NCBI GenBank assembly: GCA_040223615.1
Contig: JAVKFY010000011.1
Coordinates: 125,169-189,168 of the forward strand
Direction: 5' to 3'
Length of the DNA stretch: 64,000 nucleotides
Origin: Alphaproteobacteria bacterium
GTDB taxonomy: Bacteria; Pseudomonadota; Alphaproteobacteria; GCA-2731375
The notes under the pieces are model-generated. The model was given only the letters and a program-made list of their open reading frames with translations, was not told the origin of the DNA and did no database searches. A program made the translations under genes and the position numbers. Of the stretch, positions 7,856 through 47,638 are shown piece after piece. The number at the start of each line of letters is the position of its first letter. Position 1 is the stretch's first letter.

Positions 7856-8959
7856 CTAGGCAGCGGCCGTCGCCGGCTCCGGCGTCAGATGCTTCACCTT
7901 GGCCAGGACCTCGGTCTGGATCAGGCCGAGCGAGGTCTTCCAGGCATCGGCCTTCTCGGTATAGTCGAAGCCGAAGACCAGAAGCTGGCCGAATCCGCCG
8001 ACCTCGTCGTAGACCTTCTCGATCTTCTCCGCCACGGTCGACGGCGAGCCGACGAGCCAGTTGTGCTTGGCGCAATAGGCCGCCGTCACGTCGCTGTCCG
8101 GCACGTCGGGATCGTGCTTCAGGAACTCCAGGAACCCGAAGGCGCTGAGCAGCGGCAGGAAGTATTCCGTCATCATCCGGCCCATCGGGCCGTCGACGGC
8201 GAGCTTCCAGGCCTCCTCGTCGGTGTCGGCGACGAACATCTCGCGCACCATGCGCCACTCCTTGCGGCTCGGGTTGCGGCCTGACTTGCGCGCACCCTCC
8301 TCGACCGACTCCCAGTGGCTGCCGACGTAGGCCGGATTCAGGTTCAGGCTCATCGGAATGTAGCCCTTCTCACCGGCCAGCTTCAGCGTGTCGGAGCCCT
8401 TCGACAGCCCGGCGACGCCGATCGGCGGGTGCGGCTGCTGGAACGGCTTGATGTGCGGATGCAGGAAGCCGAGCATCGGTTCCGGCTTGGTCACATTCCA
8501 GAACTGGCCCTTGTGATCGAAGGTTTCCTCCTCCGACCACATGCGCAGGATGATGTCGAGCGCCTCGCGGGTCATGTCTCGATTGACGCCGGACATGCCG
8601 TCGACGTTGAACATCGCCCAGTCCGACGGCAGGCCGCTGGCGGCGATGCCGAAATTCAGCCGGCCCTTGGAGATGTGGTCGAGCATGGCGACGCGATTGG
8701 CCAGTTCCGCCGGGTGGTGATAGGGCAGCAGGAAGCCGCCGGGGCCGAGGCGGATATTCTTGGTCTGGCGAAAGCCTTCGATGACCAGGAAGTCGGGAGA
8801 GGGATTCGGCTCCCACTTCGCGGTGTGATGCTCGCCGACCCAGCCTTCCGTGTAGCCGAACTCGTCAAGCCAGCGCAGGACCTGCAAGTCCCATTCGTAG
8901 CCGTCGCCGAGGCTGCGCTCCGGCGGGTGCGACGGCATCGTGAAAAAGCCGAATTCCAT
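7856..8959 (-). CDS. LLM-class (luciferase-like) flavin-dependent oxidoreductase
   Basis: 367-aa TIM-barrel monooxygenase-like sequence (MEFGFFTMPSHPPERSLGDGYEWDLQ...). Confidence 0.85.
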   Translation of the reverse strand: MEFGFFTMPSHPPERSLGDGYEWDLQVLRWLDEFGYTEGWVGEHHTAKWEPNPSPDFLVIEGFRQTKNIRLGPGGFLLPYHHPAELANRVAMLDHISKGRLNFGIAASGLPSDWAMFNVDGMSGVNRDMTREALDIILRMWSEEETFDHKGQFWNVTKPEPMLGFLHPHIKPFQQPHPPIGVAGLSKGSDTLKLAGEKGYIPMSLNLNPAYVGSHWESVEEGARKSGRNPSRKEWRMVREMFVADTDEEAWKLAVDGPMGRMMTEYFLPLLSAFGFLEFLKHDPDVPDSDVTAAYCAKHNWLVGSPSTVAEKIEKVYDEVGGFGQLLVFGFDYTEKADAWKTSLGLIQTEVLAKVKHLTPEPATAAA

Positions 8960-9097
8960 TGCTCTGTCTCCTCCCAGATCCGTTTCATCGCTGACCGTTG
9001 ATAATGAGGGTCGCGAGTCCGGTCGGCCGGGTCAATGCCCATGCCGTGACAAGCTGAGGTAGACTGCCGGCGTGGACCGGCGGCAGGAGAGTCGAAG

Positions 9098-9475
9098 ATG
9101 TCCGATGAGGAGTTCGCCGCCGGCATGGCGGTGCGCCGCGCGGTATTGGGCGACGCTCACGTCGACCGTGCCGAGGCCGGCAAGACCGAGCTGGACGCCG
9201 AATTCCAGCGCTTCATTACCGAGAGCGCCTGGGGCGGCGTGTGGACGCGGCCGGGCCTGGAACGCCGCGAACGCTCTATGATCACGCTGGCGATCCTGGC
9301 GACGCTGGGCCATTGGGAAGAGTTCGCCATGCACCTGCGGGCGACACGCAACACCGGCGCCAGCGCCGACGACATCAAGGAAATGCTGTTCCATGTCGCG
9401 GTCTATGCCGGGGTACCGGCTGCCAATCGTGGCTTCGCCCTCGCCAAGGAGCTTCTGGCGGCGGACGCCGGCTAG
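9098..9475 (+). CDS. pcaC: 4-carboxymuconolactone decarboxylase
   Basis: 125 aa; RRAVLGDAHVDRA...AWGGVWTRPGLERRERSMITLAILATLGHWEE matches the PcaC/CMD family core. Confidence 0.85.
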   Translation: MSDEEFAAGMAVRRAVLGDAHVDRAEAGKTELDAEFQRFITESAWGGVWTRPGLERRERSMITLAILATLGHWEEFAMHLRATRNTGASADDIKEMLFHVAVYAGVPAANRGFALAKELLAADAG

Positions 9476-9510
9476 GAAGTTTTTCACCCTGCCCATGTAT
9501 TTGAACGGCC

Positions 9511-12500
9511 ATGACGAAGAACCTGGCGGTTAGCGCGCTGCCCCACGGCGCAATCGACATCGGCGAGGCCCTGCGCCTGCTGGCCGACCGGCTGCGCGAC
9601 CTGGTTTGCTATGTCGACAGCGACGAGATCGTTCGCTACGTCAACCGCACCGGCGCCGACTGGTGGGGCTACGCACCGGACGACGCGATCGGGCGCGACC
9701 TGGACGACCTGCTTGGCGGTTACTACGACGAGCTGCGGCCGCTCTACCGGCGGGCGTTGAACGGTGAAACGATCGAAACCGAGCGCAGCGTCGACCATCC
9801 CGACGGCAGGCACCGCGAGGTGTTCCTGACGATGACGCCGCATCGTGACCACGCGGACGCCGTCATCGGCGTGCTGGTGGTCAGCGAGGACCGCTCCAGC
9901 CTGGCCGGCGCCCGCGCGGAAATGCGCCAACACCAGGCGCTGACGGACGAGGCGCTGGCGCACCTGGCGCAGGGCATGCTGGTCTTCGACGGCGCGCACA
10001 AGCTGCGGCTGTGGAACGAGCAGGCCCACACCTTGCGCGATTATCCTCGTGATTTCCTCCGCGACGGACTTAGCTATCGCGAGGTGCTGCAACACAATCT
10101 CGACGCCGGCCTGTTCGGTGACGTCGATCACCGGCAGTTCCTGGCTCGCGTGACGAGTCCGGAAGCAATGGCGCTGCCCGCGCGGCTCGAATTCTCGCTG
10201 GCCAATGGCAACATCGTCGACATGCAGCGCGCGCCGCTGCCCGGCGGCGGCTTCGTGCTGACCTATACCGACATCACCGAGGCGAAGCGCGTCGAGGCGA
10301 AGCTGCGAGATAGCGAACAGCGGTTCCGGCTGATCGTGCAGCGTCTGCCGGTGCCGGCAACCATCGTGCGGATTGCCGACGGCCAGGTTCTGTTCCGCAA
10401 TCCGGAAGCCGAGCAGCAGCTCGTCGATTTTCGCCGCCAGGGGCTGTTCGCGGCGAACAGCGACATCCAGGACATGTGGACCAGCAATCTGGCGAAATGG
10501 CTGGAACTGCCCGACGACGGCGGCTTTCGGCAGCAGGAGTTCCCGGTTCGGGTCAACGGCCAGCAACTGTGGTTCCTGGCCGCCGGACAGCGGCTTGAGT
10601 ATGACGGCGAGCCCTGCCTGTTCGTCACCTGGATCAACATCACCGAAGCCAAGATCTCGCGCGCGGCATTGGAGCGCTCGGAAGCGAACCTGGCCGAGGC
10701 GCAGCGTATCGCCAGCTTCGGAAGCTGGCAGCACGACCTGACCACCGACCGAGCGGTCTGGTCGGCGCACTATTTCACGCTGCTCGGCCTGCCGGCCGAC
10801 GCGCCGCCCAGCTATCAGACGATTCTGGAACTGGTGCACCCGGCCGACCGCGACGACTACAACGCGTTCTTCACCACGGCGATGCGCGAAGGCGCCGGCG
10901 GCGCGCGCGAGTACCGCATCGTGCATCCCGACGGACGGGTACGCACCCTGCGCACGATCTTCCATATCGATCGCGACGAAAACGGCGCCGCGACCCGCGT
11001 CGCCGGCACGACCCAGGACATCACCGACCTGCGCGAGGCGCAATCGGCCCTTGAGGAAAGCGAGGCGCGGCTGCGGCAGGCCTCGACGCTGGCGTCGCTC
11101 GGCCGATGGGTGTGGGACGCCGTGGCCGATCGCTGCACCTACTGCTCTGAGGAGAATGCAGAGATCCACGGCATGTCGGTCGAGGCTTACATGCGCGACG
11201 CCGCGCAACTGGACCAGGAGTTCATGTTTGTCCACGCCGACGACCGTGAGCGGGTCGAAGGGCACTACGCCAAGCTGCGGCAGGGCGAGCCGTTCGACAT
11301 CCAGTACCGGATCGTCACGCCGGCGGGCGAGGTGCGGCACCTGCATGAACTGGCGATGCCGGTGTTCGACGACGACGGCCGCGTGGTTGAGGAGTATGGC
11401 GTCGCGCAGGACGTCACCCGGCTGCTGGAGACCGAACGTGCCCTGGCGGCCAGCGAGGCGCGCTTCCGCGCCGTGGTGAACCAGTCGCCGATCGCCTTCG
11501 TGCTGACCGACGCCGACGGGCGGGTGCAGCTCGTGAACCGGACCTTCGAAGACTGGTTCTCCGTCGCCGCCAGTGACGCCGTCGGCGCGCCGTGTCGCGA
11601 CCTGGTGCCGCCGGAACTGGCACCCGGCATCGATCAGGTCACGGCCGCCGTGGTTGCCGACGGCAAGCCGCGCGAGATGGAGCTCGAACTGCCAGCCGAG
11701 GGCGCGGCGGCACGCGTTCTGCTGTGCTCGGCCTTCCCGATCCGCGATGGCGACGGGACGATTACCGGCATTGGCCACCTCGCGGTCGACGTGACCGCGC
11801 AACGCCACGCCGAGGAGCGGCTGCGCCACAGCCAGAAGATGGAAGCGGTCGGCCAGATAACCGGCGGCGTCGCGCACGATTTCAACAACCTGCTGACCGC
11901 GGTGATCGGCAACCTGGACTTGCTGGCGCTGAATGTCGCCGCGGACGACGATTCCCGGCGGCTGATCGACACGGCGATCCGCGCGGCGCAGCGCGGCGGC
12001 CGCCTGACACAGCAACTGCTGGCCTTCTCGCGCAAGCAGGTCCTGGACCCGGTGCCGACCGACCTGAACGAAGCGGTCAACGAGGTGCTGCCGCTGGCAC
12101 GCACCAGCACGCGCGGACCGATTCACATCGCGACGCAGCTGACGACGGCGGTGAAGCCGGTCGCGGTCGACCGCGGCCAGCTGGAGAACGCGCTGCTGAA
12201 CCTGGTGATCAACGCCCGCGACGCGCTGCCCGACGGCGGCGAGATCACGATCAGCACCGCGAACCAGGCACCCGGCGCCGACCTGGTCGGCCCCCGCGAG
12301 GAAATAGCGCCGGGCGAATACGTGATGATCGCCGTGGCCGACAACGGTGCCGGCATGTCCGCGCGCACCCGCGCCCAGGCAGTCGAGCCGTTCTTCACCA
12401 CCAAGCCGGTCGGCCAGGGCAGCGGCCTCGGCCTGTCGATGGTGTTCGGCTTCGTGAAGCAGTCCGGCGGCCACCTGGCGATCACCAGCACACCCGGCAA

Positions 12501-34246: not shown

Positions 34247-36628
34247 CTAAGCACCGTCGCCGGGCGGCACGATATGGACGACACGCTGGGGAAACGGAAT
34301 CTCGATGTCCGCCTCGCGGAAGCGGCGGTCGATCTCGAACCGGATGTCGGAAGCGATGATGATCTTGTACAGGACGTCGTCGGTATAGCAACGCAGCTCG
34401 AAATCCAGGCTGCTGTCGCCGAAATTCATGAACAGCACGAACGGCGCCGGGTAGTCCAGCACGCGCTCGTGCGCGTTGGCCGCCTCCAGCATGATCTCTT
34501 TCACCCGCGCCGTGTCGCTGCCGTAGGCGACCCCGACCCCGACCTCGATGCGGCCGTAGCGGTCCTGGTGCGTCCAGTTCATCACGCTGGAGGAGATCAG
34601 GTCCGCGTTGGGAATGATCACCGAGGCGCGCTGGAAGGTCTGCAACTCGGTGGCACGCACGTTGATCTTCTTCACGAAGCCTTCGTTGCCGCCGACGACC
34701 ACCCAGTCGCCGACCTTGACCGGCCGCTCGATCAGCAGGATCAGGCCGGAGACGAAGTTGTTGACCACGTTCTGCAGGCCAAAGCCGATGCCGACCGACA
34801 GCGCGCCGGCGATCAGCGCGATGTTCGACAGGTCGATGCCGAGCGCCGCCACCGCCAGCGTGCCGGCCAGCAGCACGCCAAGGTAGCCGAAGCCCGACGC
34901 GATGGAGTTCTGCACCCCGAGGTCGAGGTTGGTCTCCGGCAAAAGTTGTTCGGCCAACCCCCGGCGCAGCAGCCGGGTGATGATCAGTCCAACCACGAGC
35001 ACCAGGATCGCGGTGCCGATATCGGTGATTGACAAGGTGACGTTGCCGACGCGTAAGCCGGTCAGGATCAGCGTTGCCCATTCGCTGAGCGCGGCCCAGG
35101 CGACGCCCCAGAAGGGCAGCACAAGCAGCAGCCCGCCAAAGACCAGCACTAGGTCGAGCAGGACGCGAAGCCAGAACTTCAGCAGCCGGCGGGTACGGTG
35201 GCTGATCCCGGCCTGCTCGCGTATCAGCCGGGCGCGCAGGCCGATGCCAACCAGTTCGCGCAGCACGCCGCGCAGCAGGAACAGCGTGCCGACGACAAGG
35301 CCGCTGATCACCAGGTTCTTGATCAGGTAGTCGCCGAGGCCGGCATGGCCGATCAAGATGGCGCCCATGCCGACAACCACCACGATCGCGACCAGCAGGC
35401 GCAGCAGCGGCCAGAACGGTGCCGCCGCCGCCGCTTCGACCTTCTCCACGTCGCTGCCCGGTGTCCGTTTCTGCAGACGCCACAGCGACGGGCGCAGCAA
35501 CAGCAGGATGCCGGCGCCCTCCAGCAGGTCGGTGACCGTGGCGTAGATCGAGCGCAGCGCCGGCACGATGTCGGCATCGTGAAAGGCGACGATCAACGCC
35601 ACGTCGAGCGCGAAGATGAATCCGACCAGGCCAATCCAGCGGCACATCGCGCGCGCCGAGCGCGCCTCGATCGGCATCAGGCTCCAAACCGGCTGCGAGG
35701 GCGCCAACACCGCGCGCGGCAGCGATACCGCCAGCACCAGTACGATCAGCCCGAGACAGGCGGCGGCGACATAGTCGGCGACCGGACCGAAGAACAGGTC
35801 GCTTCGGGCGGTGGCGCGCTGCAGGATGGTCAGCAGCAACGCCGCCGGGATAAGGCCACGGGCCGCCCCTTCCGCGATCGCGGCGGCGAAGCGCCGGGTA
35901 TAGGTCGGGTCCGGATCCGCATTGCGCCCGAAGCGGCGCAGCAGCACGCGTCGCAGCAACCAGCCCAAGGCCAGCACGCAGATCGTGATCAGCACCATGC
36001 GGGCGAAGATCACATTGCCGCGCTTGCGCGCGGCCAGCTCGGCCCGCCAGTCGAGCGCCGACCGTGCCGTTTCGCTCGCCAGCGCGTAGGCGGCGGCGAG
36101 ACCATCGCGCCAGGTATCGGCCTCGAAGGGCGGCGGGTAGGCACGGCCGAGGTCGTCGAAGAAGCCGGACAGCGTCAGCTCGCCAAGCTGCCCCCGGAGC
36201 TGTTCGGCGCGGGCGATGGTGAGTTCGGTCTGGGTGACGCGGGCCCGGAGCTGGGCGACTCTCTCGTTCAACGTGTCGCGTTCCTTGCGCACGTCGTCGG
36301 TTTCCGCCGGCTCGCCCTCCTTCGGTTCGGGTCCGAGGGCGGTCAGCAGTTCCTGCGCCTTCTCCAGGTCGGCGCGCGCGATGTTGGCGACCTCGTGCGC
36401 CTCCAGCAGGAGCTGACCGATCTTCGCGATCCAGTCGTCGGTCTCCGCTTCGACCTGCTGCGTCCGGTCGAGATAGACCTGCGCCTGGTCGAGGATACGG
36501 TTCCACTCGGTAAGCTGAGTGCCGAAGGGTCGCGAGATCTTTTGCGCGGATTGCGCCGCCGCCGTGCCGGCCAGGACCACCAGCACCAGGATCAATGGCA
36601 GGCAGCGAGCGACGGCACGCGCGGTCAT
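34247..36628 (-). CDS. mechanosensitive channel, MscK/KefA (large MscS) family
   Basis: 793 aa; signal peptide, long coiled-coil periplasmic domain, about 11 TM, C-terminal MscS domain. Confidence 0.85.
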   Translation of the reverse strand: MTARAVARCLPLILVLVVLAGTAAAQSAQKISRPFGTQLTEWNRILDQAQVYLDRTQQVEAETDDWIAKIGQLLLEAHEVANIARADLEKAQELLTALGPEPKEGEPAETDDVRKERDTLNERVAQLRARVTQTELTIARAEQLRGQLGELTLSGFFDDLGRAYPPPFEADTWRDGLAAAYALASETARSALDWRAELAARKRGNVIFARMVLITICVLALGWLLRRVLLRRFGRNADPDPTYTRRFAAAIAEGAARGLIPAALLLTILQRATARSDLFFGPVADYVAAACLGLIVLVLAVSLPRAVLAPSQPVWSLMPIEARSARAMCRWIGLVGFIFALDVALIVAFHDADIVPALRSIYATVTDLLEGAGILLLLRPSLWRLQKRTPGSDVEKVEAAAAAPFWPLLRLLVAIVVVVGMGAILIGHAGLGDYLIKNLVISGLVVGTLFLLRGVLRELVGIGLRARLIREQAGISHRTRRLLKFWLRVLLDLVLVFGGLLLVLPFWGVAWAALSEWATLILTGLRVGNVTLSITDIGTAILVLVVGLIITRLLRRGLAEQLLPETNLDLGVQNSIASGFGYLGVLLAGTLAVAALGIDLSNIALIAGALSVGIGFGLQNVVNNFVSGLILLIERPVKVGDWVVVGGNEGFVKKINVRATELQTFQRASVIIPNADLISSSVMNWTHQDRYGRIEVGVGVAYGSDTARVKEIMLEAANAHERVLDYPAPFVLFMNFGDSSLDFELRCYTDDVLYKIIIASDIRFEIDRRFREADIEIPFPQRVVHIVPPGDGA

Positions 36629-37356: not shown

Positions 37357-38927
37357 GCGCTGCTCCGCTGCCGCATGGCCTCGTCCGCCATCTCGCGCAG
37401 CCGGCCGCGCTGGATCTTGGTGCCGTTGGCCGACTTGGCGGTCGGGAACTCGTCCAGCACGGCGACACCGACCGGCGCCTTGAACTTGGCCAGGCCGGCC
37501 TGGCAGTGGGCGATGATCTCGGCTTCCGACACCTGTGCGCCCGTTGCCGGCACCACGAAGGCGAAGGCGCGGCGGCCGGCCGTCGCGTCGACGGCGACCA
37601 CCTGGGCGTGGCCGACCTCCGGACGCTGTTCGATATGCGCCTCGATCTCGACGGGGCTGACCAGGAAGCCGCCCAGCCGCAGCACGTCGCCCATGCGTTG
37701 CAGGTAGACGAAGCGGCCGTCGGCGCAGGTGTGGCCGAGGTCGCCGGTACGGACGAAGCCGTCGGCGGTGATGGCCTCGGCGGTGGCTTCCGGGTTGCCG
37801 TCATAGCCGGCCATCTGGCTCGGCCCTTTCAGTTCCAGCTCGCCGGGCTGGTCGTGCGGCAGCAGCGCGCCGGTATCGGGGTCGCGCACCCGCACCCCGG
37901 CCAGCGACGAAACCGGGAAGCCGCCGCCCTGCACCCGGTCCGCCAGTGGCAGGCTATCCGGCTGCCGGCTGTACAGCGCCTGCACCTCGCTCATGCCGTA
38001 GAGGCCGATGACGTTGATGCCCTTGGCGTCGCAGTCGGCGACCAGCTTGTTGAAGCCGGCGTTGAAGGCGGCGGAACCGACGGCGCGGATATTGCCCAGC
38101 GATCCGGCGTCGATCAGGGCACGCAGCATGTCGTCGGTAGCGTTCAAGTGGCGCACGTCGTGCTCGGCGATGAGCTTGATCGCGGCGCCAGGATCAAAGG
38201 CGCTTTGCAGCAGCATCGGCCGGCCGCCGGCCAGCGCCGCGGCCGCCTGGGTGAAGCCGAACACACCGCAGAAGGGCAGCGCCTGCAGCATCGCGCCCTC
38301 GTGGTAGCCGAAGCCGTCGACCACCTCGATGGCGTGGTCGGCGATCGAGTGCTGTTCGTGCAGGACGAATTTCGGCGCCTTGGTCGTGCCCGACGTGGTG
38401 AAGATGTTGCATGGGCTGTCGCGGTCGCCGTCGACCGCGTCGCGCGGCGCGGCGCCGGCCAGCTCGCCGAAACTCAGGCGCTGTATCTTGTCGAGCGCGG
38501 CGGGCAACGCCGGCTGGTCCTCGCCCTCGTCGTAGGTGACGACGGCGCGCAGGCGGGCCAGCGCGGCCGGGTCGACCTCGGCCAGCAGGCCCGGGAAGTC
38601 GATGTTGCGGAAGCCCGGCCACATCGCCAGCACCGTGGCACCGGAGCGGCCGACGATGTCGGCGACCTCGAGCGAGCGGAAGCGCGTGTTCACCGCCACA
38701 GCGATGGCGCCGAGCCGGCAGCAGGCCAGGTACAATGCCAGGTAGGCCGGCGTGTTCGGCAGCCACATCGCCACCCTGCCGCCAGGGCCGATGCCGAGCT
38801 CCGACAGGCCGCCGGCGACGCGCGCGCTCATTCGCTCCAGTTCGCCATAGGTCATCGCCCGGCCGGCGTAGTACAGCGCCGGCGCGGCCGGGTCCTGCCG
38901 CCGCAGCAGATCGGTGACGGCGAGCAT
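37353..38927 (-). CDS. AMP-dependent acyl-CoA synthetase/ligase
   Basis: 524 aa; TSGTTKAPK P-loop-like motif, GYGMSE, TGDLG. Confidence 0.88.
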   Translation of the reverse strand: MLAVTDLLRRQDPAAPALYYAGRAMTYGELERMSARVAGGLSELGIGPGGRVAMWLPNTPAYLALYLACCRLGAIAVAVNTRFRSLEVADIVGRSGATVLAMWPGFRNIDFPGLLAEVDPAALARLRAVVTYDEGEDQPALPAALDKIQRLSFGELAGAAPRDAVDGDRDSPCNIFTTSGTTKAPKFVLHEQHSIADHAIEVVDGFGYHEGAMLQALPFCGVFGFTQAAAALAGGRPMLLQSAFDPGAAIKLIAEHDVRHLNATDDMLRALIDAGSLGNIRAVGSAAFNAGFNKLVADCDAKGINVIGLYGMSEVQALYSRQPDSLPLADRVQGGGFPVSSLAGVRVRDPDTGALLPHDQPGELELKGPSQMAGYDGNPEATAEAITADGFVRTGDLGHTCADGRFVYLQRMGDVLRLGGFLVSPVEIEAHIEQRPEVGHAQVVAVDATAGRRAFAFVVPATGAQVSEAEIIAHCQAGLAKFKAPVGVAVLDEFPTAKSANGTKIQRGRLREMADEAMRQRSSA

Positions 38928-38932
38928 CGCGC

Positions 38933-39277
38933 TCAGATCTCCCCGCGAACTTTCTTGAGAAGCGTTTCCAGGTCCATCGGCACCACGACCACCTCGTTCA
39001 ACCGGCGCTCGAAATCGCTCTCGTCACGCGTCCAGCCGTCCGGTGGCAGTTCGGAAACCACCACTTCCATGAACACGCGGTAGAGCTTCAGCGCCTCCTC
39101 CGGGCCGCGCAGGTCGGCCAGCAGGGCGAGCGCGAGCTGCGCCGGGCCGGTGCCTTCATAGCCCCATTCGAACCCCTCGGCGCCCAGGTCGCGGACCTGA
39201 CGGGCCGGATCCAGCGGCTGGCCATCCACCGTGACCAGCACGCCACCGTCGATACGCTCGGCGCGGTAAACCTTCAT
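38933..39277 (-). CDS. hypothetical protein (114 aa)
   Basis: MKVYRAERIDGGVLVTVDGQPLDP...; no recognisable motif; 6 nt upstream of ligase gene. Confidence 0.45.
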   Translation of the reverse strand: MKVYRAERIDGGVLVTVDGQPLDPARQVRDLGAEGFEWGYEGTGPAQLALALLADLRGPEEALKLYRVFMEVVVSELPPDGWTRDESDFERRLNEVVVVPMDLETLLKKVRGEI

Positions 39278-39384
39278 GACTCGGGCAGTTTACTCCGAGC
39301 CGACCCGTTTGTGACGCCAGACCCACCATTATTCGTCACCCCCGGCCTTGATCCGGGCTGACGCACCGTGGAAGTAGAACGACG

Positions 39385-39408
39385 AAGGGCGCCGTCGCCG
39401 GCGCCCTT
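39385..39408 (-). terminator. GC-rich hairpin (AAGGGCGCCG-GCGA-CGGCGCCCTT) downstream of thiolase gene
   Basis: Seen in sequence; weak U-tract. Confidence 0.35.
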
Positions 39409-39433
39409 CGCGATCCGTCAGCCCGATTCAAGC

Positions 39434-40618
39434 TCAGGCGATCTCGAACAGGCCGGCGGCGCCCTGGCCGCCGCCGATGCACATGGTGGCGACGGCGTAC
39501 TTGGCGCCGCGACGCTTACCCTCGATCAGCATGTGGCCGACCATCCGCGCCCCGCTCATGCCATAGGGGTGACCGATGGAGATCGCGCCGCCGTTGACGT
39601 TGAGCTTGTCGGCCGGGATGCCGAGCTGGTCGCGGCTGTACAGGACCTGCACCGCGAAGGCCTCGTTCAGCTCCCACAGGTCGATGTCGTCGACCTTCAG
39701 GCCGGCCCGCTCCAGCAGGCGCGGCACGGCGAAGACCGGGCCGATGCCCATCTCGTCGGGCTCGCAACCAGCCACCGCGAAGCCACGGAAGATGCCGAGC
39801 GGCTGGAGGCCGCGCTGCTCGGCGAGCTTGGCGTCCATCACCACACAGGCCGACGCGCCGTCGGAAAGCTGGCTGGCGTTGCCGGCGGTGATGTGGCCGT
39901 CCGGGCCGGTCACCGGCTCCAGCGCGGCCAGGCCCTCCGCGTTGGTCGACGGGCGGTTGCCCTCGTCCTTGGTCAGCGTGACTTCTTCCTCGGAGACCTC
40001 GCCCGTCTCCTTGTTCTGCACCAGCTTGGTGGTCGGCAGCGGCACGATCTCGTCGTCGAACTTGCCGGCCTGCTGCGCCGCGGCGGTGCGCATCTGGCTC
40101 TGCAGCGCGTACTCGTCCTGGTATTCCCGCGACACGTTGTAGCGGTCGGCGACGCACTGCGCGGTCTGCAGCATGGAGTGGTAGATCGCCGGCTTGTGCT
40201 CCTCGATCCAGGGATCGCGGGCACGGTACTTGTTGGCGTGCTCGTTCTGCACCAGCGACAGGTTGTCGAGCCCGCCGCCGACCATCACCGGCACGCCGTC
40301 GACGATGACGCGCTGCGCCGCCATGGCGATGGTCTGCAGGCCGGACGAGCAGAACCGGTTCACCGTGACGCCCGAGGTGGTCACTGGCATGCCGGCGCGG
40401 ATCGCCGCCTGGCGCGCGATGTTGCCGCCGGTGGCGCCTTCCGGCGCGCCGCAGCCCATGATCACGTCCTCGACTTCGGCCGGGTCGACGCCGGCGCGCT
40501 CGACGGCGTGCTTGATCACATGGCCGCCCATGGTGGCGCCATGGGTGTTGTTGAAGGCGCCGCGATAGGCCTTGCCGATCGGCGTGCGCGCGGTAGAGAC
40601 GATGACGGCTTCACGCAT
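39434..40618 (-). CDS. acetyl-CoA C-acyltransferase (thiolase; possibly beta-ketoadipyl-CoA thiolase)
   Basis: 394 aa from [20 protein letters not shown]; active-site [10 protein letters not shown]-terminal CIGGGQG; GAGGAA RBS. Confidence 0.92.
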
Positions 40619-40695
40619 CGTTGCGTTCCTCGACTGCTGTAGTTGCACGCACTATACCGATGCCCACGTGGACTCGCCAGCAGCGCAAAGGGGCC

Positions 40696-42471
40696 ATGGA
40701 CAAACTCGACAAAACCCGTTCGAAAGCCCGAAAATCCGGGACTGTCGAGGCTTGGCGCGCGGTGCTGGCGCTGGCGCCGGAGGATCCGGAGGCGCACTTC
40801 CAGGTAGGCAATGCGGCGCTGGCGGACGGCGACGCGGCGACGGCGGTTGCCCGCTACCGCCGGGCGCGGGCGGTGGCGCCGGATGTCGAGGCGGTGGCGG
40901 CCAACCTGGCGACGGCGCTGGCGGCGCTGGGTCTGGCGGAACAGGACGCGGGCCGGCACCAGGTTGCGGCCGAGACCTTCCGCGAGGCGCTGCCGCTGTC
41001 GGACAGCCCGATCCTGCGCAACAACCTGGCGCTGTCGCTGATCGCGCTTCGCCAGTTCGACGCGGCCATCGACCTGCTGCGCCCGCTGAACGACCTGGCG
41101 GCGCAGCGCAATCTGGCGCAGGCGCTGGAACTGGCCGGCCGCCATGAGCAGGCGCGGCGCACCTGGGAGGCGCTCCAGGCCGCCATGCCGGGCGACGCCG
41201 ACGCGCTGGCGCACCTGTTCCATGCCAGCCTGCAGACCTGCGCCTGGGATGAATTGGATAGCCTCAAGGCGCGGCTCGCGGCGACGATCGACGGCGACCC
41301 CTGCCCGGCGCTGCCGCTGTTCGCGTTGCAGGGCATGGAGCTGACGACGACGCAGGCACGTCGCGCCGCCAAGTCGGCCGCGCCAGCAGCCGAACCACTG
41401 CCGGCGCGTCCTCTGAGCAGTGGTCTGCTCACGGTCGGCTATCTCTCGCCGGACCTGCGTGGCCATAGCGTCGGGCGCAGCCTGGCAGCGGTCTTCGCCG
41501 CGCACGATCGCGCAAAGCTGCATGTCGTCGGCTACGCGGTCGGCGATGCGGCACCCGACGATGTCGGCCTTGACCGGGTGGCCGATCTGCGCCATCGGCC
41601 GGCCGAGGCCATCGCCGAGACCATCGCGGAAGACGGCGTCGACATCCTGGTCGACCTGGCCGGCCCGACACGCGGCGGCGCGCTGGAGGTGCTGGCGCGC
41701 CACCCGGCGCCGCTTTCGGCGCACTATTTCGGCTATGGCGGCAGCCTGGGCGGGCTGGTCGACTACCTGGTCTCCGACGCCACTCATCTGCCCGATCCCG
41801 CCGATGTGGCGGAGGCCGTAGTGCACCTGCCGGGCAGCTTCTTCGTCGCCGCTCAGCCGGCGATCGGCTCGACGACGCGGTCCGAACACGACTTGCCGGA
41901 CGACGCCAAGGTGCTGATGAACCTGAATGCGCCGTACAAGACCCAGCCGGCGATGTTCCGGGCCTGGCTCGATATCCTGGCACGGCGCGACGACGCGGTG
42001 CTGTGGTTGCTGGACGGCGGCAGCCAGGCCAACAACCGGCTGCGCGGCGCGGCTGGCGCGCAGAAGAATCGGCTGGTGTTCGCGCCGGCCGTCGACCACG
42101 CGACACACGCGGCGCGGCAGACCCTGGCGGACGTGGCCCTGGACACCTATCCGCACGGCGGCGGCGTGACCACGTTGGATGCGCTGGCCGCCGGGGTGCC
42201 GGTGGTGACGCTGACCGGCGCGACACCTGCCTCGCGAACGGGTGCGTCGATTCTCCATGCGGCGGGCATGCCTGGGCTGCTGTGCGACAATGTTGGCGAC
42301 TACGTCGCGACCGTGCTGGCCATGCTCGACAGGCGGACACCGCCGGGCGCGCTGTCATTGTTCAATCCGGCGGCAAGGGCTAAGCAACTCAAAACGGCCT
42401 TTGAGAAGATGGCCGATCGGCACCGCGCCGGCCTGCCGCCGGCCAGCTTCACCGTGGAGGACACATCATGA
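40696..42471 (+). CDS. TPR-repeat protein with C-terminal GT41 (O-GlcNAc-transferase/SPINDLY-like) glycosyltransferase domain
   Basis: N-terminal TPR repeats, C-terminal two-lobed GT41-like region (HVVGYAVGD...NLNAPYK...TYPHGGGVTTLDALAAGVPVVTL). Confidence 0.7.
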   Translation: MDKLDKTRSKARKSGTVEAWRAVLALAPEDPEAHFQVGNAALADGDAATAVARYRRARAVAPDVEAVAANLATALAALGLAEQDAGRHQVAAETFREALPLSDSPILRNNLALSLIALRQFDAAIDLLRPLNDLAAQRNLAQALELAGRHEQARRTWEALQAAMPGDADALAHLFHASLQTCAWDELDSLKARLAATIDGDPCPALPLFALQGMELTTTQARRAAKSAAPAAEPLPARPLSSGLLTVGYLSPDLRGHSVGRSLAAVFAAHDRAKLHVVGYAVGDAAPDDVGLDRVADLRHRPAEAIAETIAEDGVDILVDLAGPTRGGALEVLARHPAPLSAHYFGYGGSLGGLVDYLVSDATHLPDPADVAEAVVHLPGSFFVAAQPAIGSTTRSEHDLPDDAKVLMNLNAPYKTQPAMFRAWLDILARRDDAVLWLLDGGSQANNRLRGAAGAQKNRLVFAPAVDHATHAARQTLADVALDTYPHGGGVTTLDALAAGVPVVTLTGATPASRTGASILHAAGMPGLLCDNVGDYVATVLAMLDRRTPPGALSLFNPAARAKQLKTAFEKMADRHRAGLPPASFTVEDTS

Positions 42472-43112
42472 CGCTGACCGACCGCCTCGCCAGGCTCTAC
42501 ACCAGCGCCGTGCACGACGTGATGCATGGGCGGGGCCATTCCAACTGCGTGCTGCCGCCGGGCCTGAACGCGGTGAACCCGGCGCATACCGTCGCCGGCG
42601 AGGTGTTCACCATCGACGGCCACTTCCAGGAGGGTCAGCCGACCAACGAGACCTTGCGCGGCTGGGCCGAGGTGCTGTCGAAGGCGCCGGCCGGCAAGGT
42701 GATCGTGTGCCAGCCGAACACCATGGAAGTGGCGCTGATGGGCGAACTGTCGGCCTCGACCCTGGCGAAGAAGGGCGTGCTCGGCTACATCGCCGACGGC
42801 GGGACGCGCGACGTGCCGCTGCTGGCGGAGATGGACTTCCCGGTATTCTCGCGCTTCGCCACGCCGAAGGACATTGCCGGACGCTGGAAAGCGAAATCGA
42901 TGGGCGAGCCGATCACCATCGGCACGGTCACGATCCACACTGGCGACTACGTGCTGGCCGACCGCGACGGCGTGGTGATCCTGCCGCACGACATCGCGGC
43001 CGAGATCGTCGCCGAGACCGAGGCCAAGGCGGAGACCGAGAACCAGATGCGCGAGGCCCTGCTGGCCGGCATGGATCCGCTCGACGCCTTCGACAAGTTC
43101 GGGACGTTCTAG
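42468..43112 (+). CDS. RraA-family protein (RNase E inhibitor / HMG-CHA aldolase-like)
   Basis: 214 aa; start overlaps previous stop (ATGA). Confidence 0.85.
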   Translation: MTLTDRLARLYTSAVHDVMHGRGHSNCVLPPGLNAVNPAHTVAGEVFTIDGHFQEGQPTNETLRGWAEVLSKAPAGKVIVCQPNTMEVALMGELSASTLAKKGVLGYIADGGTRDVPLLAEMDFPVFSRFATPKDIAGRWKAKSMGEPITIGTVTIHTGDYVLADRDGVVILPHDIAAEIVAETEAKAETENQMREALLAGMDPLDAFDKFGTF

Positions 43113-43117
43113 CGCCC

Positions 43118-43933
43118 GTGCCCCGCGACGCCGACATCCCCGTCCCGCCCTACCGCGAGCCCGGCCTGATCAACTGGGTCGGGTTCTGGACGCTGTACGC
43201 CAAGGAGGTGCATCGCTTCTTCAAGGTCGGGTGGCAGTCGATCGTGGCGCCGGTGGTCACCACGCTGCTGTTCCTGACCATCTTCACCGTCGCGTTCGGC
43301 GACCGGGAACCGCACCTGCCGGCCGACATCTCGTTCGCCGCGTTCCTGGCGCCGGGGTTGATCATGATGGCGATCATCCAGAACAGCTTCGCCAACACGT
43401 CGTCCTCGCTGCTGATTTCCAAGGTGCAGGGCAACATCGTCGATGTGCTGCTGCCGCCGCTGCATCCGATGGAGATCATGGCCGGCTATGTGCTGGCGGC
43501 GGTGACGCGGGGCCTGCTGGTGGCCTGCGCCGTCGGGCTCGGCATGGCGACCTTTTCCGAAGTCGCGATACTGCACTGGTGGCCGATCCTGTTCTTCGCC
43601 CCTGCCTCGGCCCTGCTGATGGCGCAACTCGGCCTGCTGGCGGGGATGTGGGCGACCAAGTTCGACCACATGTCGGCGGTCACCAATTTCATCATCACGC
43701 CGCTTGCGTTTCTGTCCGGGACGTTCTATTCCGTCGACCGCCTGCCGCAGTGGTTGCGGGGGGTCAGCCAGGGCAACCCGTTTTTCTACATGATCGACGG
43801 ATTCAGATACGGGATGATCGACCACGCCGACGGATCGGTGGTGGCCGGCGCGTGCCTGATCGCTGCCTTGAACGTCGCGCTCGGGGCGGCGTGCTATGGC
43901 TTGCTGCGACGTGGGTGGAACCTGAAGTTCTAA
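43118..43933 (+). CDS. ABC-2 type transporter permease (no ATPase gene adjacent)
   Basis: 6-TM ABC-2 permease sequence (WTLYAKEVHRFFKVGWQSIVAPVV...); GTG start 6 nt after RraA stop. Confidence 0.75.
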   Translation: MPRDADIPVPPYREPGLINWVGFWTLYAKEVHRFFKVGWQSIVAPVVTTLLFLTIFTVAFGDREPHLPADISFAAFLAPGLIMMAIIQNSFANTSSSLLISKVQGNIVDVLLPPLHPMEIMAGYVLAAVTRGLLVACAVGLGMATFSEVAILHWWPILFFAPASALLMAQLGLLAGMWATKFDHMSAVTNFIITPLAFLSGTFYSVDRLPQWLRGVSQGNPFFYMIDGFRYGMIDHADGSVVAGACLIAALNVALGAACYGLLRRGWNLKF

Positions 43934-43978
43934 CTGGCGCCGCCCGCCTTCTCTCCTGAGCAAACTGGACTTAAACTC

Positions 43979-44010
43979 AACCGGGCGTCGCGCTAGCGAC
44001 GCCTTTTGCA
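43979..44010 (+). terminator. intrinsic terminator
   Basis: GGCGTCGC-GCTA-GCGACGCC hairpin followed by TTTTGCATTT. Confidence 0.5.
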
Positions 44011-44026
44011 TTTATGGGATGGACCC

Positions 44027-45202
44027 ATGTCGATAACTGCCGTGATGCCGACCTATGCCAGAACCGATGTCGCCTTCGAGAAGGGTGAGGGTAGCTACCT
44101 GACGGACAGCACCGGTCGACGCTACCTCGACTTCGGCACCGGTATCGCCACGGCGGGCATCGGCCATTGCCACCCGCACCTGGCCGAAGCCATCGCCAAG
44201 CAGGCGGCGACGCTGATGCACTGCTCGAACCTGTACAACATCCCGGGCCAGCAGAAGATGGCCGACCGGCTGGTCGCCGCGACCTTCGCCGACTCGGTGT
44301 TCTTCGGCAACTCCGGCGCCGAGGCCAACGAGTGCGCGATCAAGATGGCGCGCCGCTACCAGCACGTCAGCGGCCATCCGGAGCGCTACCGCGTCATCAC
44401 CTTCGAGAACTGCTTCCACGGCCGCACGCTGGCGACCATCGCGGCGACCGGCGCGGAAAAGGTGCTGCAGGGCTTCGGGCCCAAAGTCGACGGCTTCGAT
44501 CATGTCCCCTTCGGCGACCTGAAGGCGACCGAGGGTGCGATCTCCAACGAGACCGCGGCGATCATGGTCGAGGCGGTGCAGGGCGAAGGCGGCTTCTTCG
44601 TCGCGCCGGACGGCTTCCTGGAGGGGCTGCGCAAGCTTTGCGACAAGCACGGCCTGCTGCTGATCGCCGACGAGATCCAGACCGGCATGGGCCGCACCGG
44701 GACGTTCCTGGCGTTCGAGCAGTTCGGCGTGAAGCCGGACATCGCCACGCTCGGCAAGTCGATCGGCGGCGGCTTCCCGACCGCCGCGTGCATCGCCACC
44801 GCGGAAGCGGCCAAGGGCATGACCGCCGGCACCCATGGCTCGACCTATGGCGGCAACCCGCTGGCCATGGCGGCGGCGAACGCGACCATGGACGTGGTGC
44901 TGGAGGCCGGCTTCATGGACCACGTGCAGGCGATGTCCAAGCGGCTGCGCGCCGGCGTGGAGGCGATCCGCGACCGCAACGACTCGCTGATCGAACTGGT
45001 GCGCGGCAAGGGGCTGATGATCGGGCTGAAAACCCGCGTGCCGAACGGTGAGATCGTCAACAAGCTGCGCGACGCCGGCATGCTGACGGTGCCGGCCGGC
45101 GACAACGTGGTCCGGCTGCTGCCGCCGATGACGGTGTCCGAGGCGGAGATCGACGAGGCGCTGGCGATCATCGAGAAGATCTGCGTCGAGGATGGATCGT
45201 GA
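44027..45202 (+). CDS. argD: acetylornithine aminotransferase
   Basis: Class III aminotransferase; PLP-lysine region [17 protein letters not shown]...[10 protein letters not shown]. Confidence 0.9.
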
Positions 45203-46125
45203 CCGGGCCACGGCATTTCGTCGATATCGACACGATGTCGCGCGAGGAATTGCGCGGCATCCTCGATATCGCCGGCAAGCTGAAGGCTGACCGTCCGACC
45301 CGGGGCATGGCGACGGCGCACAACGACGCGCCGCTCGCCGGCAAGATGCTGGCGATGATCTTCGAGAAGCCGTCGACCCGCACGCGCGTCTCGTTCGACG
45401 TGGCGATGCGCCAGCTCGGCGGCCAGACCATCGTGCTGGAGGGCGTCTCGATGCAGCTCGGCCGCGGCGAGAGCCCGGCCGACACCGCGCGCGTGCTGTC
45501 GCGCTATGTCGACGCGATCATGGTGCGCACGCGCGGCCACGACCTGATCGAAGAGATGATGCAATTCGCCACGGTGCCGGTGATCAACGGGCTGACCGAC
45601 AACAACCACCCGTGCCAGCTGATGGCCGACGTGATGACCTTCGAGGAACATCGCGGCGCCATCGACGGCCATACCGTGGGCTGGGTCGGCGACGGCAACA
45701 ACATGGCGCGCAGCTGGATCGACGGCGCCGCGCGCTTCGGCTACCGCCTGCGCCTGGCCTGCCCGGAACCGCTGGCGCCGCCGCCGGACGCGGTCGAGCA
45801 GGCCCGCGCCGAGGGCGCCGACGTGATCGTCACCACCGATCCCGAGGCCGGCGTCGCCGACAGCGACCTGGTGGTCACCGACACCTGGGTGTCGATGCAT
45901 GACGACGCCGGCTCCGACCGCCATAACCTGCTGGCCGGTTATCAGGTCAACGAGCGCCTGATGTCGCACGCGGCGAAGGACGCGATCTTCATGCACTGCC
46001 TGCCGGCGCATCGCGGCGAGGAGGTCTCGGCTGAGGTGATCGACGGGCCGCAATCGGTGGTCTGGGACCAGGCCGAAAACCGCCTGCACGCGCAGAAGGG
46101 CATCCTGACCTGGTGTCTGACCTGA
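45199..46125 (+). CDS. argF: ornithine carbamoyltransferase
   Basis: STRTR carbamoyl-phosphate motif, HPCQ, HCLP. Confidence 0.93.
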
Positions 46126-47060
46126 GCTCCGCGACCGCTTCTCAAGACGACCTGGTCCGCCCGTTCCAGCTCGAGTCGGGACCGATCCGCGGCCGGCTGG
46201 TGCGGCTCGGCACCACCGCCGACGAGGTGCTGACCCGGCACGGCTATCCGGTCGCGGTGGCAACGCTGCTGGGCGAGGCGCTGGCGCTTACCGCCGCGCT
46301 GTCCTCGGCGTTGAAGTTCGACGGCATCTTCACCCTGCAGGCCAAGGGCGACGGGCCTTGCCGGATGCTGGTCGCCGACCTGGCCACGCCCGGCCGGATG
46401 CGCGGCTACGCCCAGTTCGACCGCGATGCCGCGGCGCCCGACGACGCCATCGAGGACGGTCGCGCCTCGGTGCCCCGCCTGCTCGGCGCCGGCCACCTGG
46501 CGTTCACCGTCGACCAGGGTATCAACGACCGCTACCAGGGCATCGTGTCGCTGGAGGGCCACAGCCTGGCCGATTGCGCGCACCACTATTTCCAGGAATC
46601 GGAGCAGATCCCGGCGGCGCTGCACGTCGTCGCCGGCCAGGCCGGACCCAGCGGCGCCTGGCGCGCCGGTGCGCTGCTGCTGCAACGGCTGCCGGAGGGT
46701 GATCCCGCCCTGCTGGCCCGCGGCGCCGAGTTCGACCGCGAGGACACCGAGGAGGCCTGGCACCGCGCCGTCACCTTCCTGGCCACGGCGAAGCGCGAGG
46801 AGTTGCTCGACCCCGGCCTGGACGGCGACGACCTGCTGTTCCGGCTGTTCCACGAGGAGGGCGTTCGGGTGTTCGATCCGACGCCGGTGGGCTTCGGCTG
46901 TCGTTGCACGCCGGAGCGCGCGGTCGCCGTGCTGCGCCAGCTCGACGACGAGGAACTGGCCGGCCTGGCCGACGACGGCAGAATCGAGGTGCGTTGCGAG
47001 TTCTGCAACACCCCTTATCTCTATGACCTGGAAGAGTTGCGGCCGACGGGGAGGCCATGA
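46113..47060 (+). CDS. hslO: Hsp33 redox-regulated chaperone
   Basis: C-terminal CRC...CEFC zinc centre; conserved argD-argF-hslO order of alphaproteobacteria. Confidence 0.9.
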
Positions 47061-47638
47061 TGCGCGCCGTTTGGATCTCGCTGCTGCTGGTCGTGGGGTT
47101 GGCGGCTTGCCAGTCCTCGCCGCCGCCGGCGACCTATCCGCAGATCACCTACCTGAACAAGCAGCCGATCGCGCTCGACGTCGCGCGCATCGACGTGGTC
47201 GTCGCCTACCAGCCGCCACTGAAAGCGCCGAACGTGGAGCACCGCCTGCCGGTGTCGCTTTCCGATACCATCGCGCGCTGGGCCACCGACCGGCTCCGCG
47301 CCGTCGGCAGCAGCGGCACCGCGACCTTCACCGTCCTCGACGCCTCGGTGATCGAACAGGAACTGGAAACCCGCAAGGGCCTGACCGGCCTCATCAACAC
47401 CGACCAGGCCGCGCGCCTGAAGGGCCGGGTCGCGGCGCGGCTGGAGATCGACCAGGGCGGCGGCCTGGCCACCGGCTTCGCCGAAGCCAACGCCAGCCGC
47501 ATCCAAACCATCGCGGAAGGCATCACCCTGGCCGAGCGCGACGATGTGTTCTACCGGTTCGAGGAGGCCATGGCGAAAGACCTCGACCGCGAACTGGAAG
47601 CGGTGGTGCGCGAAAAGCTCGGCGCGTTCGTGCGCTAG
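47057..47638 (+). CDS. hypothetical lipoprotein
   Basis: Signal peptide with lipobox LAAC; start overlaps hslO stop. Confidence 0.55.
   Translation: MMRAVWISLLLVVGLAACQSSPPPATYPQITYLNKQPIALDVARIDVVVAYQPPLKAPNVEHRLPVSLSDTIARWATDRLRAVGSSGTATFTVLDASVIEQELETRKGLTGLINTDQAARLKGRVAARLEIDQGGGLATGFAEANASRIQTIAEGITLAERDDVFYRFEEAMAKDLDRELEAVVREKLGAFVR

Follow-up and report, generated by a model that had tools for sequence, protein, structure and literature searches.

ATP-binding cassette (ABC) exporters of the ABC-2 type are normally read as gene pairs, with one gene for the permease and one for the ATPase, and annotation pipelines as well as transporter censuses depend on this pairing. What is to be made of an ABC-2 permease gene without an ATPase gene beside it? 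The question is raised by a 64,000-nucleotide stretch of an alphaproteobacterial genome (GCA-2731375 lineage; contig JAVKFY010000011.1, positions 125,169 to 189,168), referred to here as the window, in which the permease gene closely follows genes for a tetratricopeptide repeat (TPR) glycosyltransferase of the GT41 family and for an RraA-like protein. The missing neighbour proves to be a property of a whole alphaproteobacterial clade of YadH-like permeases, whereas sister clades keep their linked ATPase gene. Searches of the literature on orphan ABC-2 permeases and yadGH yielded no description of such a clade, or of any ABC-2 exporter the ATPase of which is unlinked throughout a clade. On balance, we lean towards an ABC-2 exporter of which the permease provides the membrane half and the ATPase is unlinked or shared, with the RraA-like and GT41 genes as lineage-specific neighbours that are now probably co-transcribed with the permease gene.

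A permease clade without a linked ATPase gene

An earlier account of the locus, made from the letters alone and called the sequence-only reading below, had remarked on the absence of an ATPase gene next to the permease, and this observation holds for the entire window. Neither scans for Walker A and signature motifs, nor a hidden Markov model of 15 ATPases paired with related permeases, run against all six-frame open reading frames (ORFs), found an ABC ATPase in the 64 kb. A scan of species-representative genomes for relatives of the permease returned 71 loci, and more were added via exact-protein look-ups; the set compared here consists of 60 alphaproteobacterial loci with 823 kb of flanking sequence and 16 loci from Gammaproteobacteria, Thermodesulfobacteriota and other groups (individual loci are given by L numbers). 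An ABC ATPase gene adjoins the permease gene at none of the 60 alphaproteobacterial loci. By contrast, a DrrA/NodI-type ATPase gene ends 0-3 nt before the permease start in every one of the 16 non-alphaproteobacterial relatives (33-48% identity). Overall, the missing linked ATPase is a trait of gene organisation and not of the protein family. A rearrangement confined to this strain, which the sequence-only reading had named as the finding that would undo its case, is not borne out by the 60 loci. The same reading saw a meaningful substitution in the RraA-like gene occupying the place of the ATPase gene; this idea is not supported, since the ATPase-less state is clade-wide and independent of RraA.

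A small number of ABC ATPase genes do occur 1.4-7 kb from alphaproteobacterial permeases, and they are mostly parts of other recognisable systems. SufC, PstB, DppF-type, sugar-importer type, ProV-like and ABC-F proteins could be assigned; one further ATPase gene adjoins a gene for an NMT1-family binding protein, and one of the GldA type is accompanied by its own ABC-2 permease and auxiliary domains (GldF/G-like genes). The ATPase of L019, encoded 6.5 kb from the permease, matched no specific family.

In a neighbour-joining tree, the ATPase-less alphaproteobacterial permeases are monophyletic and sister to the ATPase-linked permeases of L053-L055. Judged by this topology, the simplest history would be that permease and ATPase genes parted once, early on. 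Carriers of the clade include Rhodospirillales, Geminicoccaceae, Sneathiella, Parvibaculaceae, Pyruvatibacter and one Pelagibacteraceae genome (L052). In most alphaproteobacterial loci the permease gene lies directly 5′ of an argD-argF-hslO block (tblastn; the majority of L001-L052, and L072-L075), while the gene upstream of it varies by lineage and may encode an MscS-type channel, RecX, TamB, GcrA, a xanthine-dehydrogenase-type protein, ArsC or a thiolase. With such unrelated genes upstream in different lineages, none of the neighbours can stand in for the ATPase in the clade as a whole. In Pyruvatibacter mobilis, for example, the order is pstSCAB-phoU-phoB, gcrA, permease, argD, argF, hslO. 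The distance between permease and argD is 23-28 nt in the marine lineages L043, L048 and L051 and 0 nt in L052, likewise marine; at these loci, permease and arginine-biosynthesis genes probably share a transcript, in contrast to the window with its terminator between the two.

Several variations on this arrangement were seen along the way. Marine genomes of the Rhodospirillaceae/MarineAlpha3 type carry three tandem permease paralogues 5′ of argD (Table 1), and two copies are present in L011, L014 and L031. The tandem paralogues fall into separate lineages of the tree, a pattern indicative of an old triplication, and all of them lack an accompanying ATPase gene; their coexistence hints that the membrane domains may be hetero-oligomeric. 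A TamB gene (~1460 aa, PF04357) on the same strand ends 38-144 nt before the permease in Geminicoccaceae-like and related soil lineages. The Geminicoccaceae loci also have an insert of 750-1050 nt between permease and argD, and at L018 this interval holds a 273-aa ORF (8817-9638) that by sequence appearance resembles a nitrilase/carbon-nitrogen hydrolase.

Family, fold and conservation of the permease

The permease matches Pfam family PF01061 (ABC2_membrane) with 104.8 bits against a cut-off of 26.9, its residues 23-233 covering positions 3-210 of the 211 in the profile. Its best curated match is the YadH-like NCBIfam model PRK15066 (NF011648), which aligns over the full length (positions 6-256 of 257) with 216.3 bits and a cut-off of 225 that is not reached. 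On these scores, the protein appears to be a close relative of the YadH-like family and not a certified member of it. The label 'NodJ/KpsM-type' applied in the sequence-only reading is loose by comparison, with only 42.3 bits against the NodJ model TIGR01291 (cut-off 206.65) and 17.2 bits against the KpsM model NF050053 (cut-off 300).

An AlphaFold2 model built on 47 homologues is of good overall quality (pLDDT 87.5, pTM 0.86) and features an N-terminal interface helix (residues 20-36), six transmembrane (TM) helices, a cytoplasmic loop between TM2 and TM3, and a re-entrant segment between TM5 and TM6. As modelled, the permease thus has the six TM helices, the interface helix and the coupling loop of a type V ABC exporter transmembrane domain. 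Foldseek searches with the model place KpsM (8tun_C) at the top with a TM-score of 0.71, and also retrieve TarG (6jbh_C), Wzm (6oih) and ABCG/ABCH proteins.

In the solved type V exporters KpsMT, TarGH and Wzm-Wzt, the interface helix and the coupling loop are the parts that touch the ATPase. The cytoplasm-facing segments are also the best conserved ones in permeases of the ATPase-less clade: the mean frequency of the major residue is 0.81 in the TM2-TM3 coupling loop (residues 102-116) and 0.83 in the TM4-TM5 loop (179-183), compared with 0.63 for the whole protein. The ATPase-less and the ATPase-linked clades have two residues of the interface helix (E30 and R33) and three of the coupling loop (K102, L111 and P114) in common. 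The retention of these coupling elements suggests that the permease still relies on a partner in the cytoplasm, for which an ABC ATPase with its gene at another locus would be the simplest candidate.

Among 47 permeases of the ATPase-less clade, which are 45-96% identical, 46 alignment columns are invariant; homologues measure 256-300 aa and align with a coverage of 95-100%. A variable N-terminal tail is followed from residue ~19 by the conserved segment 'NWxGxWTLYxKEVxRFxKV'. By these measures the permease is intact and under purifying selection. The sequence-only reading had worried that a wrongly chosen GTG start might conceal an N-truncated pseudogene, a worry laid to rest by the conserved helix from residue ~17, the lengths of the homologues and the NCBI start, which is the same GTG.

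The probable transcription unit and its lineage-specific members

The permease gene is the last of three compact genes on the forward strand (Table 1). Their assignment to GT41/TPR, RraA-like and ABC-2 families in the sequence-only reading agrees with the Pfam matches, and none of the three is unusual as a member or near-member of a known family. The junctions could be read directly from the sequence: the GT41 and RraA-like genes share a 4-nt overlap, ATGA, at 42468-42471, and 5 nt (43113-43117) separate the stop codon of the RraA-like gene from the permease GTG. The overlap and the tight packing had been described correctly, and only the spacer, previously given as 6 nt, needs amending. NCBI gene calls on the source contig, a 196.5-kb piece of a metagenome-assembled genome, agree, permease start included, and list three consecutive proteins, MEQ9639331-333, named 'hypothetical protein' (MEQ9639331), 'RraA family protein' (MEQ9639332) and 'ABC transporter permease' (MEQ9639333), the last being the name that such permeases routinely receive.

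The strong terminator expected after the permease is indeed there. It consists of a GC-rich 9-bp stem at 43983-44004 followed by TTTGCATTT, and is the sole terminator-like site between 40300 and 44300. The hairpin is kept 3′ of the permease in L001, L072 and L073, and a comparable one in L003. A scan of positions 38000-47500 against Rfam for a riboswitch or leader gave no match. Spacings of -4 nt and +5 nt, together with one terminator after the permease, support a single transcription unit; going by this layout, GT41, RraA-like and permease genes are probably co-transcribed and translationally coupled, on one transcript that would end at the 43983 terminator.

Table 1. Features of the window, and permease arrangements at related loci (positions in the window unless a locus is named)
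Feature	Position	Strand	Remarks
DUF6166 gene	38933-39277	-	small conserved gene 5′ of the unit, divergent; counterpart in L018
Thiolase	39434-40618	-	5′ of the three-gene unit, divergent from GT41
TPR + GT41 (OGT/SPINDLY-like) glycosyltransferase	40696-42471	+	ATG start, TGA stop, 591 aa; first of three genes
RraA-like/class II pyruvate aldolase-like protein	42468-43112	+	ATG start, TAG stop, 214 aa (long form)
ABC-2 (type V ABC exporter) permease, YadH-like	43118-43933	+	GTG start, TAA stop, 271 aa
Intrinsic terminator	43983-44012	+	9-bp stem, 7 GC pairs, 4-nt loop, T-rich tail
argD	44030-45202	+	NCBIfam PRK01278 acetylornithine transaminase, 584 bits
argF	45199-46125	+	3′ of argD
hslO	46113-47060	+	3′ of argF
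Putative lipoprotein, 193 aa	47057-47638	+	small conserved gene, directly 3′ of hslO
Tandem permease triplets	L020 520-2931; L042 6269-8680; L027 4288-6735; L033 6321-8768; L038 7941-10370
TamB-preceded permeases	L019, L029, L032, L034, L035, L037, L039, L046, L068

At 26 or more of the related loci, too, hslO is followed by the gene for the putative lipoprotein.

The first gene of the unit encodes a protein that matches PF13844 (Glyco_transf_41) with 151.8 bits (cut-off 25), TPR_2 with 38.1 bits (cut-off 27) and several other TPR families. The Pfam TPR matches fall within about residues 17-127, so that recognisable TPRs are few. Its matches in the Protein Data Bank (PDB) are human OGT (2.7e-53), XcOGT (2vsn; 3.3e-41) and SPINDLY (1.4e-30), with the alignment to XcOGT extending over residues 139-556. 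The UDP-binding lysine of the human OGT motif 'NQLYK' is kept as 'NAPYK'. As judged from its sequence, the protein has the GT41 domain, the N-terminal TPRs and the lysine of the family, and shares with XcOGT (2vsn/2jlb), SPINDLY and human OGT the arrangement of N-terminal TPRs followed by a GT41 catalytic domain. A further motif, 'GGGVTT', is nearer to the 'AGTTTT' of SPINDLY than to the 'NGHTTG' of OGT in the alignment.

A GT41 gene directly precedes the RraA-like gene only in the window, in L001 (850-2616) and in L072 (7581-9335). The protein is 76% identical to its counterpart in L001, compared with 95-96% for thiolase, RraA-like protein, permease and ArgD, and 68% identical to that in L072, compared with 75-93% for the other genes there; on these comparisons it diverges much faster than its neighbours. 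An ancestral neighbourhood of MscS-type channel, GT41 and permease genes was considered and dropped, the MscS-type channel of the window (34247-36628) being only 25-32% identical to the MscS proteins of the other loci over the conserved domain.

The RraA-like protein matches PF03737 with 106.3 bits and falls far below the cut-offs of the RraA equivalogs (NF006875, 44.6 bits with a cut-off of 136; TIGR02998, 21.1 bits with a cut-off of 241.25); at 214 aa it is also longer than the ~161 positions of the RraA models. In NCBIfam it comes closest to PRK08245 and PRK09262 (CHA aldolase/oxaloacetate decarboxylase), with all scores under the cut-offs, as are those for the HMG/CHA aldolase models TIGR02798 (ligK/PcmE; 80.3 bits, cut-off 304.5) and NF006731 (91.3 bits, cut-off 179). 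No protocatechuate or gallate pathway genes are found among the annotated flanking genes. Matches in the PDB are 3k4i, 5ir2 and 3noj, and the nearest solved relative, 3k4i, is an uncharacterised protein. Residues G92, R113, D114 and E191 align with Gly101, Arg123, Asp124 and Glu199 of 3NOJ, the HMG/CHA aldolase of P. putida, in which Arg123 is catalytic and Asp124 and Glu199 are metal ligands (PMC5065237). Both proteins belong to PF03737 and are long forms with a C-terminal helix; the RraA-like protein differs from the aldolase in scoring under the equivalog cut-offs and in the pocket positions Thr145 and Lys147, which are not kept. Taken at sequence level, the PF03737 domain, the catalytic Arg and the Asp/Glu metal ligands are all present, and the protein looks like a metal-dependent enzyme of the pyruvate aldolase/decarboxylase type and not like a regulator of RNase E.

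RraA-like genes occur 5′ of the permease only in the window, L001, L072/L073, L002 and L018, which together form one subclade of the tree. Permease identity to the window within this subclade is 95% in L001, 75% in L072/L073, 67% in L002 and 56% in L018. A TTG start of the permease overlaps the stop codon of the RraA-like gene in L072 and L018, and tight coupling of the two genes is maintained within the subclade. At L018 no GT41 gene lies between thiolase and RraA-like genes, and the two adjoin directly. Overall, the coupling of GT41 and RraA-like genes to the permease is lineage-specific. In a metagenome scan, the RraA-like protein had no close relatives other than those of L076 and L077, which represent one organism; neither adjoins a permease. 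The gene in question (5001-5642 in both) belongs to an organism with 45% GC, encodes an orthologue of 64% identity and lies ~190 nt 3′ of a gene for an AcrB-type resistance-nodulation-division (RND) protein. On its other side and on the opposite strand are genes of the adenylosuccinate-lyase family, for a gamma-glutamyltranspeptidase and for an aminotransferase. This is a second, different pairing of the RraA-like subfamily with a membrane exporter gene.

A proposed partner ATPase, competing explanations and known systems

How could a permease of this kind work? In the explanation that we favour, the ATPase subunit would be encoded at an unlinked locus, either as a dedicated orphan or as a subunit shared with another ABC-2 system. 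The alphaproteobacterial permease family would have left its ATPase gene once, early on, and would have bordered the conserved argD-argF-hslO block on its 5′ side ever since. In the lineage of the window, an RraA-like gene would have come to adjoin the permease upstream, followed by the gene for a TPR-GT41 protein glycosyltransferase, and neither of these additions would be mechanistically required by the permease. The conservation of the coupling loop and of the cytoplasmic segments is expected if the permease still docks a nucleotide-binding domain. Three points weigh against this explanation. Neither the window nor the flanks of the related loci offered a candidate for the partner ATPase. 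In a profile search with the ATPases of the sister clade, those named among the best 120 matches are all gamma- or deltaproteobacterial, which, for this top part of the list, fits weakly with Alphaproteobacteria having no close YadG-type orthologue. Finally, the start/stop overlap between RraA-like and permease genes persists down to a permease identity of 56% and may reflect a functional tie.

Such a tie is the core of an alternative, in essence that of the sequence-only reading, which gives the permease of the subclade a true partner in the cytoplasm, namely the RraA-like protein, be it as a regulatory subunit on the coupling loop or as an enzyme that feeds its product to the exporter. The presence of the RraA-like gene upstream of the permease in every member of the subclade, always with a stop/start overlap or a 5-nt gap, would agree with this, as would the high conservation of the cytoplasmic loops. 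However, about 50 other members of the clade have no RraA gene nearby and lack the ATPase just the same, and L003, the sister of the RraA subclade, is also without an RraA gene. The coupling-loop residues are alike in members with and without an RraA-like neighbour, the 64%-identical orthologue follows an AcrB gene with no permease, and the retained Arg, Asp and Glu of class II pyruvate aldolases point to an ordinary soluble enzyme. We consider a partnership of this kind unlikely, if worth keeping in mind.

Alternatively, the alphaproteobacterial clade could function without any nucleotide-binding domain, as an ATP-independent facilitator, a scramblase or a membrane scaffold that evolved from an ABC exporter. 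The consistency with which the ATPase gene is absent, extending to the streamlined marine Pelagibacteraceae locus L052 and to the loci with tandem paralogues, speaks for this possibility, and so does the result of the sister-clade profile, in which no alphaproteobacterial protein is named among the best 120 matches. Against it stand the structural matches, every one of which above threshold is an ABC transporter TM domain solved with its ATPase, and the fact that coupling loop and interface helix, with invariant residues common to the ATPase-linked clade, are among the best-conserved parts of the protein. Moreover, the assembly of ABC subunits needs no gene linkage, as the shared ATPases of sugar importers and the energy-coupling factor (ECF) transporters demonstrate. 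To us this second alternative seems doubtful to much the same degree. The more general proposal that the clade gave up its nucleotide-binding domain, and became either an ATP-independent device or, in the subclade of the window, one that the translationally coupled RraA-like decarboxylase/aldolase drives or gates, is a long shot; if it were true, no earlier family of type V ABC transmembrane domains would be known to work without an ABC ATPase.

A third alternative combines all three genes of the window in one glycoconjugate pathway, with the exporter secreting a glycan or a glycosylated product in the manner of Wzm/KpsM/TagG-type systems. The three genes are compact, on the same strand and followed by one terminator, the structurally known ABC-2 exporters transport glycans and glycolipids, and GT41-like genes occur ~2-4 kb upstream of the permease on the opposite strand in L024, L026, L043, L048 and L051. 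But TPR-GT41 enzymes such as OGT, SPINDLY and XcOGT are protein glycosyltransferases and not polymer synthases, and the scores given above make the permease YadH-like, not KpsM-like or NodJ-like. The GT41 gene is restricted here to the closest relatives and evolves fast, and the annotated flanking genes include no flippase, polymerase, sugar-nucleotide or other polysaccharide genes. A common pathway is therefore very improbable.

The idea that the permease is a decaying relic, or an N-truncated pseudogene left behind after loss of the ATPase, draws on the missing ATPase, on a GTG start with a weak upstream Shine-Dalgarno-like sequence and on broken frames in two related soil loci (L067 and L069), and is rejected in view of the full-length ORF with its N-terminal interface helix, the invariant columns, the length of the homologues, the confident structure prediction, the NCBI start and the maintenance of the gene in ~60 species including streamlined marine lineages. 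The broken frames themselves come from metagenome-assembled contigs of soil with 'MFD' names, in which the permease is split in L067 (8001-8770) and L069 (8001-8665). An unrelated DppF-type ATPase is split across frames in the same way in L037 (10149-11030). Since the L037 and L067 contigs also frameshift an unrelated ATPase, the breaks in L067, L069 and L037 most likely stem from frameshift errors in assembly or sequencing, and not from pseudogene decay.

Should the ATPase be unlinked or shared, the clade would call for caution in the annotation of transporters, and it would provide a clean system for studying how ABC-2 membrane domains pick their partners. Should no ATPase exist, the view of what a type V ABC membrane domain needs would have to change.

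Among known systems, the closest in family terms is YadG/YadH of E. coli, which is related to DrrAB and NodIJ. YadH and the permease of the window have PF01061, size and a six-TM layout in common; in the clade of the window, by contrast, the interface helix is preceded by a variable stretch of some 10-25 extra aa at the N-terminus. The yadG-yadH layout, with the ATPase gene abutting the permease gene, is that of the 16 non-alphaproteobacterial relatives and not that of the clade described here. YadGH has been reported as a macrolide efflux pump (PMC13462070).

In structural terms, the nearest systems are KpsMT-KpsE (8tun/8tsh), TarGH (6jbh), Wzm-Wzt (6oih, 7k2t) and the ABCG/ABCH transporters, which have the fold of the permease (Foldseek probability 1.00, TM-scores of 0.6-0.71) at a sequence identity of merely 12-21%. 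All of them were solved with their cognate ATPase. Bacterial exporters of polysaccharides and teichoic acids normally carry the ATPase gene in one cluster with the permease gene.

That ABC components can be orphans has been noted before, for example in Ca. Liberibacter asiaticus (PMC3688454). The working model of an unlinked ATPase finds its closest counterparts in transporters of another kind. The shared ATPases MsiK and MsmK of sugar importers, as well as the ATPases of group II ECF transporters, serve scattered membrane components in trans. It is these systems that the alphaproteobacterial YadH-like clade would resemble in its organisation, although they are importers and have other folds.

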